Below, one piece after another: positions 4,997-28,312 of a stretch of 64,000 bases of DNA. Source of the DNA: Eledone cirrhosa (Eukaryota); NCBI GenBank assembly GCA_964016885.1, contig OZ024751.1, positions 38,068,001-38,132,000 of the forward strand, written 5' to 3'. Every line of letters starts with the position of its first letter. Within the stretch, counting starts at the first letter, position 1. The translations under genes and the position numbers were made by a program. Below the pieces are notes generated by a model. It was given only the letters and a program-made list of their open reading frames with translations. It did no database searches and was not told where the DNA came from.

Positions 4997-6771
4997 CTGA
5001 TATAATTGTACATATTAACATATTTAAGGTGAAGTGGTGAGTGGGAGTAGCAGTTTATGGCTGCCGTGAAAATGATGTATTTACAATTCCCGTGCGTTAT
5101 TATGTGCCTATCGTAAATAAGCAGCCTGTTTTAATGAATTGCAAGGCTATATTGTCGTCTTTTGATATATTTGTTTCAATTCAGTTGTGACGATGTAGAC
5201 TTAATGACATACAAACGTACACATGTAGGCTCACCCACACTTACCACACGTATATATTTAAATATATGTACATATATATTGGTATAGGTAAGGTGGGGTA
5301 CGTTTGCTTTGTACTTTAGCATGAATATTGCAAACAAGTTTTAAGTAGTGTGCATTTTTTAAATGCGGAAATTGTAGTAAAAATAATTATAATAATATAA
5401 CATGAAACAATCTAAATGCATTAGTCAACATACGCCATTAACGTTGAAATCATGTTTCTAAAAAGGAAAATTAAAAGAAAAATGGTTACGCATATTAAAT
5501 AAGGATGGTAAATTTGAAATGGTATAGAAAATATGACATGAAAATCGAGAGAATATAAATAAAATAAGGCATGAGTCATTAAAATATAGAAATTATTTCA
5601 ATCTATGTTACTGCTGGAGAACACATACTTTTGCTACTGGTATTGTACTTTACTAGAAGTTTTCAAAGTACACGTATTTCAACCCATGAAAGTAAAAGCA
5701 CTGGAAATCTAATTCATATTCTATGGCAGCAACAACATTTTAAATAAAAGACAGGAGCGAAAATGGGTTGTTTGGGCTCAGCTTGAAGTCATCCCTGATA
5801 AGGCAAACAGAGGGTGAGAGGGAGAAATTAAGAGAGTAAGAGAGATAGTAAGAGAGGGTGATAAAGAATAAGAGTGAGGTAGAGATAAAAAAAACAGAAA
5901 TTTCTAGAAATTTCAGAGAAAGTAATACAGAAATGATTAATAATTCATTAATCAATTCATCAAATTCAAAGCAAATCAAGACACAGTCTGTTTAATCAAC
6001 ACAAGGTTTCACTTACAGTAAATAATTCTCTTTTTACTCCCAATCCTGCCCCATTTCCCTTCTCTTTCTTTCCTTTGTTCACATTCGAGCCTTCATTCAG
6101 TTTATTTGTCCTTTTTTCTATTATGTCATTCATCAACTTGTCTCACTCAAATTTCAAATGAAATTTTCCTCTTAATTTTCATCTAATTTTACTTTTATTT
6201 ATGCATATATACACACACACAGACACAGATATACAAAAACATACATACACACATACACATATAAACACGTACACACATACATACATGAAGACAGACACAC
6301 ATATATGTATATATGTATGCTTATATGTATGAATGCGTGTGTGAGTGTGAAAATATGTGTATGTGTGGATACGTATGTTATATGTGCAGGTTTGTCCACA
6401 TATGTGTTCAAGTGTATTCTGTCTGTAGTTACATGTCAAAACGTTTATATACTAAGCTGACACATTTTGCATTTTACCATTTTACCAATTCCTCTTGAGA
6501 GATTATCTGGAATTGACAGGACAATATATGGATCCATTTTTAATACCACAGATTAAAAGGCAGCTGAAGTATTCTTGCTTCTTGATTCTATTTATCTCGC
6601 CATCCCCTCTCTTCTTCCCAGCGGTTTACTATTGCTAAAGTCTTGCTATTCTGACTAACGTTTTGGCTCTGACAGGTGACTATGCCATTGGCTAAGCTTT
6701 GTACAATTTATTAATTACGGAAAAATTCTATATATGCATCCTGCATATATACACTTGTGTAAATACGCAAT

Positions 6772-6919: not shown

Positions 6920-6998
<79 letters not shown>

Positions 6999-7386
6999 TA
7001 CACACAAACATCTACGCACACATATACATGTATACATAACATTGTCTGCCCTCTGTTGTTGCTGCTATGTAAGCTAAGGGAAATTAAGTATCACGTGGTA
7101 TTGGAATAGAGACGATTAATCAAAGTTCATCAATAGGAGTTCAATATACCATCCTGACCAAAATAAATGATAAATTTTTAAGCAATCCTTTAAATACTCA
7201 TTAATAAAATAACACACACCCATACATACATACATACATACATGCATACACACATACATATACACACGTATATATATATATACGTTTATATAGATGTAAG
7301 ATTCTCTAATGTGTACCACACACACGCACACATATATGTATGTATATATATATCTATATATATATCTATATACATACATACATACA

Positions 7387-22768: not shown

Positions 22769-23624
<856 letters not shown>

Positions 23625-25806
23625 AAATTGGAATAAATGCTCTGAAATAGCGATATATATGTGAATATAGACATAGAATATTCGAAAATATTCTGTATGT
23701 TTATAATAAACATTTTGAAGACCTAATCGCTATAGAATAGAATACGTCACGTATTACAATTAGATTCTCGATAAAAGCAAGGGAAGTAAGTCTACGCGTT
23801 TCATTCTCGTTAGAAATCGTCAGGACTACATATCCAGTGCTTTTATCGAGAATGACACAGCTAGAGACTTATAGAATACTTAGCTGTGTACAGGAACTGG
23901 TTTGAAAGAGCGGTTGCCGGTCCGGCAGAAATTAGAAATTGGAATAAATGCTCTGAAATAGCGATATATATGTGAATATAGACATAGAATATTCGAAAAT
24001 ATTCTGTATGTTTATAATAAACATTTTGAAGACCTAATCGCTATAGAATAGAATACGTCACGTATTACAATTAGATTCTCGATAAAAGCAAGGGAAGTAA
24101 GTCTACGCGTTTCATTCTCGTTAGAAATCGTCAGGACTACATATCCAGTGCTTTTATCGAGAATGACACAGCTAGAGACTTATAGAATACTTAGCTGTGT
24201 ACAGGAACTGGTTTGAAAGAGCGGTTGCCGGTCCGGCAGAAATTAGAAATTGGAATAAATGCTCTGAAATAGCGATATATATGTGAATATAGACATAGAA
24301 TATTCGAAAATATTCTGTATGTTTATAATAAACATTTTGAAGACCTAATCGCTATAGAATAGAATACGTCACGTATTACAATTAGATTCTCGATAAAAGC
24401 AAGGGAAGTAAGTCTACGCGTTTCATTCTCGTTAGAAATCGTCAGGACTACATATCCAGTGCTTTTATCGAGAATGACACAGCTAGAGACTTATAGAATA
24501 CTTAGCTGTGTACAGGAACTGGTTTGAAAGAGCGGTTGCCGGTCCGGCAGAAATTAGAAATTGGAATAAATGCTCTGAAATAGCGATATATATGTGAATA
24601 TAGACATAGAATATTCGAAAATATTCTGTATGTTTATAATAAACATTTTGAAGACCTAATCGCTATAGAATAGAATACGTCACGTATTACAATTAGATTC
24701 TCGATAAAAGCAAGGGAAGTAAGTCTACGCGTTTCATTCTCGTTAGAAATCGTCAGGACTACATATCCAGTGCTTTTATCGAGAATGACACAGCTAGAGA
24801 CTTATAGAATACTTAGCTGTGTACAGGAACTGGTTTGAAAGAGCGGTTGCCGGTCCGGCAGAAATTAGAAATTGGAATAAATGCTCTGAAATAGCGATAT
24901 ATATGTGAATATAGACATAGAATATTCGAAAATATTCTGTATGTTTATAATAAACATTTTGAAGACCTAATCGCTATAGAATAGAATACGTCACGTATTA
25001 CAATTAGATTCTCGATAAAAGCAAGGGAAGTAAGTCTACGCGTTTCATTCTCGTTAGAAATCGTCAGGACTACATATCCAGTGCTTTTATCGAGAATGAC
25101 ACAGCTAGAGACTTATAGAATACTTAGCTGTGTACAGGAACTGGTTTGAAAGAGCGGTTGCCGGTCCGGCAGAAATTAGAAATTGGAATAAATGCTCTGA
25201 AATAGCGATATATATGTGAATATAGACATAGAATATTCGAAAATATTCTGTATGTTTATAATAAACATTTTGAAGACCTAATCGCTATAGAATAGAATAC
25301 GTCACGTATTACAATTAGATTCTCGATAAAAGCAAGGGAAGTAAGTCTACGCGTTTCATTCTCGTTAGAAATCGTCAGGACTACATATCCAGTGCTTTTA
25401 TCGAGAATGACACAGCTAGAGACTTATAGAATACTTAGCTGTGTACAGGAACTGGTTTGAAAGAGCGGTTGCCGGTCCGGCAGAAATTAGAAATTGGAAT
25501 AAATGCTCTGAAATAGCGATATATATGTGAATATAGACATAGAATATTCGAAAATATTCTGTATGTTTATAATAAACATTTTGAAGACCTAATCGCTATA
25601 GAATAGAATACGTCACGTATTACAATTAGATTCTCGATAAAAGCAAGGGAAGTAAGTCTACGCGTTTCATTCTCGTTAGAAATCGTCAGGACTACATATC
25701 CAGTGCTTTTATCGAGAATGACACAGCTAGAGACTTATAGAATACTTAGCTGTGTACAGGAACTGGTTTGAAAGAGCGGTTGCCGGTCCGGCAGAAATTA
25801 GAAATT
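23625..25806 (-). repeat. 311-bp hammerhead satellite/retrozyme array, left arm, 7 head-to-tail monomers
   Basis: 'ggaataaatgc' recurs at 23630, 23941, 24252, 24563, 24874, 25185, 25496; minus-strand hammerheads at 23786-23829 and every +311. Confidence 0.96.
23786..23829 (-). ncRNA. Minimal type I hammerhead ribozyme (first of 7 minus-strand copies)
   Basis: gtagtc CTGACGA t ttct aacg agaa t GAA ACGCGT A gacttac. Confidence 0.94.
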
Positions 25807-25827
25807 AGAAATTAGAAATTAGAAATT

Positions 25828-27499
25828 GCTTTTATCGAGAATCTAATTGTAATACGTGACGTATTCTATTCTATAGCGATTAGGTCTTCAAAATGTTTAT
25901 TATAAACATACAGAATATTTTCGAATATTCTATGTCTATATTCACATATATATCGCTATTTCAGAGCATTTATTCCAATTTCTAATTTCTGCCGGACCGG
26001 CAACCGCTCTTTCAAACCAGTTCCTGTACACAGCTAAGTATTCTATAAGTCTCTAGCTGTGTCATTCTCGATAAAAGCACTGGATATGTAGTCCTGACGA
26101 TTTCTAACGAGAATGAAACGCGTAGACTTACTTCCCTTGCTTTTATCGAGAATCTAATTGTAATACGTGACGTATTCTATTCTATAGCGATTAGGTCTTC
26201 AAAATGTTTATTATAAACATACAGAATATTTTCGAATATTCTATGTCTATATTCACATATATATCGCTATTTCAGAGCATTTATTCCAATTTCTAATTTC
26301 TGCCGGACCGGCAACCGCTCTTTCAAACCAGTTCCTGTACACAGCTAAGTATTCTATAAGTCTCTAGCTGTGTCATTCTCGATAAAAGCACTGGATATGT
26401 AGTCCTGACGATTTCTAACGAGAATGAAACGCGTAGACTTACTTCCCTTGCTTTTATCGAGAATCTAATTGTAATACGTGACGTATTCTATTCTATAGCG
26501 ATTAGGTCTTCAAAATGTTTATTATAAACATACAGAATATTTTCGAATATTCTATGTCTATATTCACATATATATCGCTATTTCAGAGCATTTATTCCAA
26601 TTTCTAATTTCTGCCGGACCGGCAACCGCTCTTTCAAACCAGTTCCTGTACACAGCTAAGTATTCTATAAGTCTCTAGCTGTGTCATTCTCGATAAAAGC
26701 ACTGGATATGTAGTCCTGACGATTTCTAACGAGAATGAAACGCGTAGACTTACTTCCCTTGCTTTTATCGAGAATCTAATTGTAATACGTGACGTATTCT
26801 ATTCTATAGCGATTAGGTCTTCAAAATGTTTATTATAAACATACAGAATATTTTCGAATATTCTATGTCTATATTCACATATATATCGCTATTTCAGAGC
26901 ATTTATTCCAATTTCTAATTTCTGCCGGACCGGCAACCGCTCTTTCAAACCAGTTCCTGTACACAGCTAAGTATTCTATAAGTCTCTAGCTGTGTCATTC
27001 TCGATAAAAGCACTGGATATGTAGTCCTGACGATTTCTAACGAGAATGAAACGCGTAGACTTACTTCCCTTGCTTTTATCGAGAATCTAATTGTAATACG
27101 TGACGTATTCTATTCTATAGCGATTAGGTCTTCAAAATGTTTATTATAAACATACAGAATATTTTCGAATATTCTATGTCTATATTCACATATATATCGC
27201 TATTTCAGAGCATTTATTCCAATTTCTAATTTCTGCCGGACCGGCAACCGCTCTTTCAAACCAGTTCCTGTACACAGCTAAGTATTCTATAAGTCTCTAG
27301 CTGTGTCATTCTCGATAAAAGCACTGGATATGTAGTCCTGACGATTTCTAACGAGAATGAAACGCGTAGACTTACTTCCCTTGCTTTTATCGAGAATCTA
27401 ATTGTAATACGTGACGTATTCTATTCTATAGCGATTAGGTCTTCAAAATGTTTATTATAAACATACAGAATATTTTCGAATATTCTATGTCTATATTCA
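25828..27499 (+). repeat. 311-bp hammerhead satellite/retrozyme array, right (inverted) arm, about 5.4 monomers
   Basis: Reverse complement of the left arm; 'gcttttatcgagaatctaattg' at 25828, 26139, 26450, 26761, 27072, 27383; ends in (TA)n. Confidence 0.96.
26088..26131 (+). ncRNA. Minimal type I hammerhead ribozyme (first of 5 plus-strand copies: 26088, 26399, 26710, 27021, 27332)
   Basis: CTGACGA 26094-26100, stem II TTCT/AGAA, GAAACGCGTA 26115-26124, stem I agtc/gact; predicted cut after 26124. Confidence 0.94.
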
Positions 27500-27514
27500 T
27501 AAATATAAATATAT

Positions 27515-27579
<65 letters not shown>

Positions 27580-27596
27580 AATATATATATAAATAT

Positions 27597-28312
27597 AGTA
27601 TTAGTTATACTATTTATGGTTATGTAAACACAAAACCTTAAGCAGTTGTAAGTATTTTACACACACCCTAAATAGTGGTAGGCAGTAATGTATTACTACC
27701 TTATTACCAGTAAGTTAAGTAGCTCAATGTAAAAACATCAGATGATTTACAGAGCAGTTATATGAAATATAAGAATCAAAAAACTGTTCAAAACATTATT
27801 GTGCTTACAGCTGTTTCCTCCAAACCGAGGTTTGGATTCTTCGGAGCAATTTATTAATGCATGGACAGTTATATGACCTCCTTTTCAGCCGAGAGACTGA
27901 AAAGGAGGTCATATACCTACCTAAGTGCCTCTACCACACATATCTCTCTGCCACACTATATAAACAAGACGCACATGCGTGCCACACATATAACATTTGC
28001 ACTATATAACCACTTATCTTCATGTTGTACTTTAACCTATATCTTTGATTTTTGATTGTACCTATTAATATAAATGTAATCTCGAAGTGTGTACTGCCAC
28101 TCTAAATTCTGTAATGAATGTTGACCCACAATGTTTGAATATGTATCAATGTTTGAATATGTATTGGTATGTCTCTCGGCTGAAAAGGAGGTCATATAAC
28201 TGTCCATGCATTAATAAATTGCTCCGAAGAATCCAAACCTCGGTTTGGAGGAAACAGCTGTAAGCACAATAAAGTTTTGAACAGTTCTTTGATTCTTATA
28301 TTTCATATTTCA
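27597..28312. mobile_element. TA-embedded hammerhead element, family F, with 138-bp inverted arms
   Basis: Arms 27760-27897 and 28171-28308; inner hairpin 27870-27916; hammerheads at 27802-27848 (-) and 28220-28266 (+). Confidence 0.88.
28220..28266 (+). ncRNA. Type I hammerhead ribozyme, CCGAAGA core variant
   Basis: tgct CCGAAGA a tccaaac ctcg gtttgga g GAA ACAGCTGT A agca; identical copy on the minus strand at 27802-27848. Confidence 0.85.

Follow-up and report, generated by a model that had tools for sequence, protein, structure and literature searches.

A five-copy AGAAATT run where two inverted arms of a predicted hammerhead retrozyme array meet in Eledone cirrhosa

The twin-arm array and its monomer

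The window analysed here, a stretch of 64,000 nucleotides of the Eledone cirrhosa genome (contig OZ024751.1, positions 38,068,001 to 38,132,000), contains a tandem array of a 311-bp monomer inserted between two (TA)n tracts, one of more than 1,000 such arrays in this genome. The monomer bears a predicted ribozyme and the array consists of two inverted arms. At the turn, where the arms meet, the 7-mer AGAAATT stands in five exact copies (25793-25827). Positions within the monomer are given as phases, counted from 23625.

The left (TA)n target tract (22769..23624; Tandem Repeats Finder, TRF, and sequence) is followed by the left arm (23625..25806, + strand), which comprises 7.02 identical monomers in the presumed sense of the complementary DNA (cDNA) and runs from phase 1 to phase 5 without a mismatch. 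Its outer end, start site A (phase 1, 23625..23629, + strand), lies within the second 7-mer of the monomer. A 5-bp GC hairpin (25781..25793, + strand, fold -4.8 kcal/mol) is located directly 5' of the 7-mer pair at the turn, followed by two templated AGAAATT copies, as in every monomer (25793..25806, + strand), and by three additional copies, the putative slip product (25807..25827, + strand). The TT at 25826..25827 fits both sides of the inversion junction as a microhomology. The inverted right arm (25826..27499, - strand) holds 5.38 identical monomers, again with 0 mismatches, from phase 156 to phase 38 left to right; read from its right edge, it begins at start site B (phase 38, 27490..27499, - strand) and stops at phase 156. 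Site B lies 35-37 nt from site A, which is the offset of a Penelope-type tail, and borders the right (TA)n target tract (27500..27597; TRF).

All 11 other monomer boundaries of the array (6 on the + strand, 5 on the - strand) carry AGAAATT twice; both this contrast with the turn and the TT step into the inverted strand are exactly as the original prediction described them. (AGAAATT)4 is found at only five places (7 matches) in the 3.0 Gb genome. Three of these are inversion points of tandem insertions (the window array, L061/L132 and L126) and two are unrelated microsatellites, a rarity which implies that the run in the window is not a chance sequence. With 0 mismatches over 12.4 copies, the array is very young.

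An artefact of sequencing or assembly at the fold-back point is very improbable. The evidence comes from one assembly, and no listed short-read contig (X1-X3) crosses the window junction. At 7 other positions these contigs do switch from plus to minus, and they include a loop made purely of the 7-mer, the latter possibly derived from other loci; therefore inversions and long runs exist outside this assembly. Furthermore, the monomers beside the window junction are error-free, and fold-back chimeras would not give the ordered outer ends and homology-guided slips described below.

A motif scan predicts one type I hammerhead per monomer, on the - strand of the left arm (7 copies, the last at 25648..25701) and on the + strand of the right arm (5 copies, that of the first full monomer at 26082..26135 with a predicted cut after 26124). 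The motif consists of a CUGANGA core, a 4-bp stem II, GAAA, a short palindromic stem III and stem I. Core, stems I-II and the short palindromic stem III are present in 12 of 12 full copies, and the positions that vary between arrays are N7, loop II, a bulge of stem I and the base that follows the core. Metazoan hammerheads with a short stem III of this form are described as acting as dimers (PMC4209133). Two results count against the assignment: an Rfam scan returns no hammerhead match, and the minimum-energy fold differs from the ribozyme fold. Animal non-LTR (non-long terminal repeat) retrozymes are described as tandem arrays whose unit measures 170-400 nt and contains one type I hammerhead (PMC7229834; 10.64898/2026.07.22.740005). 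The window array resembles them (Cervera and de la Pena 2020; Li, Clavereau, Pollet 2026) in its unit of 311 bp (310 in many sister arrays) and in the hammerhead of each unit, and from these sequence motifs we classify the window monomer as an animal non-LTR retrozyme with a predicted type I hammerhead.

If the RNA is taken as the ribozyme strand, both arms, read inward from their TA flank, have cDNA sense. The window turn and both outer ends differ from the predicted ribozyme cut (between phases 168 and 169), in agreement with the original prediction. A 16-bp internal inverted repeat (25630-25645 / 25704-25719) matches the first bases beyond the window turn.

Outer ends, template and stops of the arms

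The sample comprises 75 loci: a DNA search supplied 15 arrays, and the other 60 were taken from the first 100 matches listed for the start pattern. A plus arm is followed by a minus arm at 68 loci; the other seven are single-arm or interrupted and, lacking a plus-minus junction, were left out of the junction counts. TA runs flank nearly all sampled arrays. One outer end lies at phase 1-3 (A) and the other at phase 29-44 (B) in 59 of the 68 arrays, and the combination A+A does not occur (0 of 68); in the remaining nine an end is off position, or cut by a gap or the locus edge. Because the 60 were selected for an A end, only the DNA-search set tests both ends; there, 11 of 14 arrays not chosen for an A end are A+B. 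Phase 38 accounts for 33 of 136 outer ends.

Genome-wide, a TA run is joined to phase 1 or 3, the start class of site A, in 261 and 1,051 matches (a few of them internal variants), to phase 38 in up to 1,230 matches (internal variants included) and to the ribozyme cut site in none; these counts required exact flanks and represent lower bounds. The matches support the earlier claim that priming occurs at a defined site; the second start (29-44), used by the other arm, had been missed. Array starts are fixed at two sites about 35 nt apart, which supports their identification as the tail of a Penelope-like element (PLE).

General PLE traits are given as a preference for (TA)n, copies that are inverted and truncated, and a tail on one side only (Craig 2021, PMC8557442), and the sampled arrays possess a (TA)n target, an inverted second copy and a tail at one end. 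PAc of Anolis is described as cutting AT-rich DNA and extending both strands in vitro, with its reverse transcriptase (RT) starting at two adjacent internal RNA sites that bound a 30-40 bp tail (Frangieh 2024, PMC11167929). The arrays share with PLE insertions and PAc the AT-rich or (TA)n target, the extension of both strands, the two starts and the inverted 5'-truncated copy. Unlike in PLEs, the arrays were copied over and over from a short, presumably non-coding unit, likely a circle. Junction slips such as those reported below do not figure in the passages on PLEs in PMC11167929 and PMC8557442.

PLEs with RT and GIY-YIG are abundant in the genome; RVT_1 and GIY-YIG were detected together in L160, and RVT_1 slightly below the cut-off in L156. 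Homology to the monomer is absent from the six PLE loci with long open reading frames that were compared. One PLE family starts its cDNA with a similar ATTAG motif and has a tail of its own. A shared motif with 1,102 matches, followed as a lead to an autonomous partner, led to a sister retrozyme family and not to a coding element. An RT-coding PLE family (L156:3140-3330 and 6966-7089; L157:2691-3375 and 5767-6454) likewise has inverted arms in TA tracts, with two starts located by eye about 60 nt apart, which exceeds the published 30-40 bp tail.

The majority unit is identical in both arms of all 21 arrays with at least three full units per arm, and units of different arrays match in 64 of 420 pairs (15%). 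Array-specific variants, up to 20, are present throughout all copies, and arm length ranges from 0.2 to more than 21 copies (mean 5.3). Since the haplotype is the same in both arms, these are best explained as rolling-circle copies of one monomer circle, made from both target ends; the arms would match, too, in a cell where one source locus predominated. For retrozymes, copying of circular RNA into tandem cDNA by a PLE RT has been proposed (PMC7229834; 10.64898/2026.07.22.740005). L119 (G000:C2:272315300-272323300) carries the same 86-nt and 3-nt deletions once per arm in different order, which hints at mixed or multimeric templates in some insertions.

The arms stop at scattered places. Inside the 7-mer pair lie 6 of 136 arm ends against 6.1 expected, which rules out a defined stop at the 7-mer, and the end phases are not different from uniform (chi-square p 0.13, Rayleigh p 0.08, 136 arm ends). 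A stop or start at the ribozyme cut was rejected as well, with 2 of 136 ends in phases 160-175 (7 expected) and no starts, as was a common RNA 5' end for both arms, the arm lengths being uncorrelated (rho 0.18, p 0.18). The difference in end phase between the arms departs only weakly from uniformity (Rayleigh p 0.02, with several tests made), and no consistent private variants are shared at matching distances in both arms. A route via the 16-bp internal inverted repeat is possible at the window turn, with ends not clearly enriched; by hand count, 11 of 136 ends lie at phases 140-157 (about 8 expected).

In its strict form, the original prediction placed both priming and termination at one defined AAUUUCU site and had a telomerase-like addition of repeats precede the switch of strands. 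We consider this scarcely credible, and for termination it is refuted by the count of arm ends in the motif. Start site A does lie inside the AAUUUCU motif, and 3-5 copies stand at the turn in 4 arrays and in one element of a second family (see below). On the other side, the arms pass through the motif about five times on average, and among the 68 arrays, which were not picked for their junctions, none has a 7-mer expansion and one (L100) has a 7-mer contraction 13 nt before its turn. Tabulated across sister arrays, as the original prediction proposed, starts are fixed and turns are scattered, and scattered turns speak against a defined termination site. The left arm measures 2182 nt, i.e. 7 monomers plus 5 nt; it starts in the motif as claimed, and its integer monomer number is a coincidence of fixed start and chance stop.

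The two arms overlap by at least 2 nt at 27 of 55 insertion-free junctions (18% under the null, p 1.4e-7). Inserted bases are present at 13 of 68 junctions.

Slips near and away from the turn

A pattern for the start of a third 7-mer has 62 matches at 22 places, of which 21 were inspected; the remaining place, an array with 26 matches, was taken as a variant monomer by its 310-bp spacing. Hits explained by a point variant, by an incomplete third copy where an arm ends or by junction overlap were excluded. True 7-mer expansions (3-5 copies, 1-3 extra units) number seven genome-wide in more than 1,000 arrays, at distances of 0, 0, 8, 11, ~150, ~450 and ~500 nt from the turn. Four of the seven, or three of six without the window locus, are thus located no more than 11 nt from it.

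The 7-mer is one of the three best short-range direct repeats of the monomer, besides a pair of the 5-mer AGAAT and a 10-nt repeat, and all three expand near the turn. AGAAT is expanded at 11 places, and 7 of 10 lie within 90 nt of the arm end; L143 was omitted from the 5-mer count, as its third copy may be a junction overlap. For the 7-mer and 5-mer pooled, 11 of 17 expansions are near the turn against 5.5% expected (p ~1e-10, a value that includes the window locus and distances entered by hand). The 10-nt repeat, for which the prediction was set beforehand, has a single expansion match, within 30 nt of its turn. Shifts of at least 3 nt show the same location: 10 of 12 rows (one gap counted twice), from 9 of the 68 arrays, fall within 60 nt of the turn, a zone comprising 3.7% of arm sequence. 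Homology of 2-7 nt is present at the re-priming point of 8 of 10 checked shifts, against 8% by chance. End slips also occur in the single-arm arrays L135 and L046. The stutter is a general junction slip, recurrent but rare and not specific to the 7-mer. Of the reiterative slipping before strand switching that had been claimed, its reality and recurrence stand; it is confined to four arrays with at least three copies no more than 11 nt from the turn, out of more than 1,000, and other repeats slip too.

It is improbable that the run grew later, once the array was in place, through replication slippage or through repair in the middle of the 3.9-kb palindrome. The centre of a long inverted repeat is fragile, and this fragility would likewise place changes near the turn. 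A later change is hard to combine with 0 mismatches in 12.4 copies of a very young array, and a two-copy 7-mer is a poor substrate for slippage. In addition, slips of 10-41 nt on 1-5 nt of homology resemble re-priming and not microsatellite growth, and L135 has end slips in a single arm, i.e. without a palindrome.

L062 possesses four successive back-slips of 13-32 nt (L062:3100-3490), about 310-370 nt before its turn, besides a partial third 7-mer at the turn.

Joining of the arms, known systems and related families

In our preferred reading, which we hold with belief and doubt in about equal parts, the window run is a three-copy over-run of the two-copy 7-mer, produced by slipping of a newly primed DNA end while the two cDNAs were joined. 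A Penelope-type endonuclease would cut both strands of a (TA)n tract, and each 3' end would prime cDNA synthesis at one of two fixed positions in the retrozyme RNA, which lie about 35 nt from each other (the ends are observed, the enzyme is presumed). Both cDNAs, as their identical haplotypes suggest, would go round one and the same monomer circle 1-20 times before ending at positions that are not programmed. Their 3' ends would then anneal at 1-5 nt, here TT/AA, by a pathway to which the observed excess of microhomology points. These four steps (double cut, two fixed starts, rolling copying and 3'-to-3' join), deduced from the anatomy of the arrays, have good support. Finally, the right-arm end, held by two pairs, would copy the left cDNA backwards across the 7-mer pair, melt and re-anneal one unit back in three rounds before synthesis became processive; this synthesis may be the work of a Pol theta-type host polymerase that joins ends at microhomology, or of the element's own RT with DNA as its template. 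The hairpin at 25781-25793 is the only one adjoining the 7-mer pair, and it stands on the side where it would pause backward cDNA copying, not an RT on RNA. A role as pause site for the polymerase copying the left cDNA backwards is a weak possibility.

Several observations weigh against this reading. The hairpin is no stronger than shuffles (z -0.96). Six of the 17 expansions lie far from the turn (~150, 260, 450, 500, 2,500 and >5,800 nt), too distant for a joining patch. L049 (G000:C2:84728500-84735500) carries a three-copy 7-mer once per arm, about 450 and 500 nt from the turn. No autonomous PLE partner was found among the six long-reading-frame PLE loci or by the shared-motif search, and circle, cut and enzyme are all deduced from their products. 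Finally, a late first-strand slip on RNA and an early slip while copying the other cDNA yield the same finished sequence, and for this reason sequence alone cannot separate an RNA-templated from a DNA-templated slip. The L049 expansions fit neither a monomer circle nor a joining slip.

Alternatively, a PLE RT that stalls and detaches may have moved the 3' end of the cDNA to any homology close by on the RNA, doing so repeatedly where the repeat is perfect, with the joining taking place later. We regard such a first-strand stutter as possible, if somewhat doubtful. It accounts for the clustering close to arm ends and also for the six distal expansions and the end slips in the single-arm arrays L135 and L046, and PLE RTs are described as the closest relatives of TERT (PMC8557442; 10.1101/2025.10.16.682844). 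It requires, however, that the cDNA ends were joined nearly untrimmed; no stable RNA structure that would stop the RT was found 5' of the 7-mer pair (fold z 0.10), and known joining pathways are described as already producing such insertions (PMC2895639). We favour the joining-step slip because it explains slips at the join without extra assumptions.

The first-strand stutter is telomerase-like in its realignment step, without a programmed boundary. As in telomerase and DRT10, the latter as described in 10.1101/2025.10.16.682844, the end of the product steps back by one unit on a template of two copies, pairs again and is re-extended, and alignment and templating segments are present as two adjacent 7-mers in every monomer. 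According to the same source, telomerase needs a template boundary and the repeats are its main product. Here there is no such boundary, and the motif is read through in nearly all passes (on average about five per arm); the repeats are rare by-products, and other repeats behave alike. The telomerase likeness drawn at the outset holds for realignment and fails for the template boundary that defines the enzyme. That the PLE RT has a latent capacity for repeat addition, an RT pair working from the two strands of a single cut on one RNA circle, re-aligning its product on the RNA and adding short repeats when stalled, is unlikely in our view. If true, the 7-mer pair that marks the start site, retained within a loop in three non-autonomous families, would represent a natural half-way state between target-primed reverse transcription of retrotransposons and telomerase, lacking only the template boundary.

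Twin priming of L1 (Ostertag and Kazazian 2001, cited in PMC11702581) is described as the extension of two cDNAs from both target ends, joined at microhomology with resulting inversion, and the arrays agree with it in these respects. In the L1 account the second primer anneals beside the end of the first cDNA, and overlap between the arms is slight. The arrays, by contrast, have a fixed start for either arm, each arm runs through the entire unit many times, and poly(A) is absent. Alternative end joining by Pol theta is described as leaving templated insertions with repeated 5-8 nt units from several rounds (PMC2895639; PMC9962433). Short microhomology, insertions copied from flanks and repeated units are common to both, and 9 of 68 arrays have flank-copied shifts within 60 nt of the turn; in contrast, some slips here are situated 150 nt to kilobases from the junction, and the enzyme is presumed. 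Unlike published retrozymes, of which the accounts cited describe tandem repeats only, most sampled arrays are built of two arms in inverted orientation; their starts are fixed and paired, and their junction is random and bears the marks of slips.

The entry of retrozyme arrays into genomes and the origin of the tandem and inverted structures and tails of PLEs are stated as open questions (PMC7229834; PMC8557442). Retrozymes, PLE tails and inversions, twin priming and templated insertions are each already known. No description of retrozyme arrays combining paired fixed starts, inverted arms and junction slips was found in the sources consulted, subscription papers and supplements being outside this scope (Figure S9 of PMC7229834 may bear on the model). 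The family consists of more than 1,000 very young insertions that follow one rule (A arm, B arm, one haplotype, random microhomology join). This rule supports two-strand target-primed rolling-circle copying in vivo, in agreement with the biochemistry of PAc, and the junction slips are a countable footprint of the joining step. The five-copy run alone, a rare by-product, matters little; it is a real but incidental slip scar, and the array architecture of the family, which is more valuable, usefully records PLE-driven insertion of retrozymes in vivo.

A second, unrelated family with a 291-bp unit (L126:1430-1816, L196-L225; G000:C1:42516407-42516793 and others) has five AGAAATT copies at one turn and two at 26 of 30 sites. 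It possesses TA targets, inverted arms and two starts, with an AGAAATT pair at one start (129 pattern matches). The unit contains a tRNA-like segment (ARAGORN tRNA-Ser), which also has an Rfam tRNA match, the other Rfam hits being hairpin noise. A hammerhead core was not found by a simple scan. The family is likely a tRNA-derived passenger of the same machinery.

Older sister families (L166-L195, L063:1-530, L065:1350-1610, L074:2750-3130) have units of about 320 bp, 68-75% like the window monomer. They retain the start module and begin in the same AATT motif (1,102 motif matches), and their hammerhead differs by a drifted core and a palindromic stem III of greater length. At start A of three families, the predicted fold places the 7-mer-like pair in a loop closed by a 5-6 bp stem (window 25450-25515; L210:1484-1560; L176:1505-1580), each fold being no stronger than shuffles; this loop recalls the stem-loop start of PAc.

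To the right of the array, a separate repeated element (27598-28311) is located between TA tracts and has 138-bp inverted arms (27760-27897 / 28171-28308). It has relatives in other loci and is likely a truncated PLE-type insertion.

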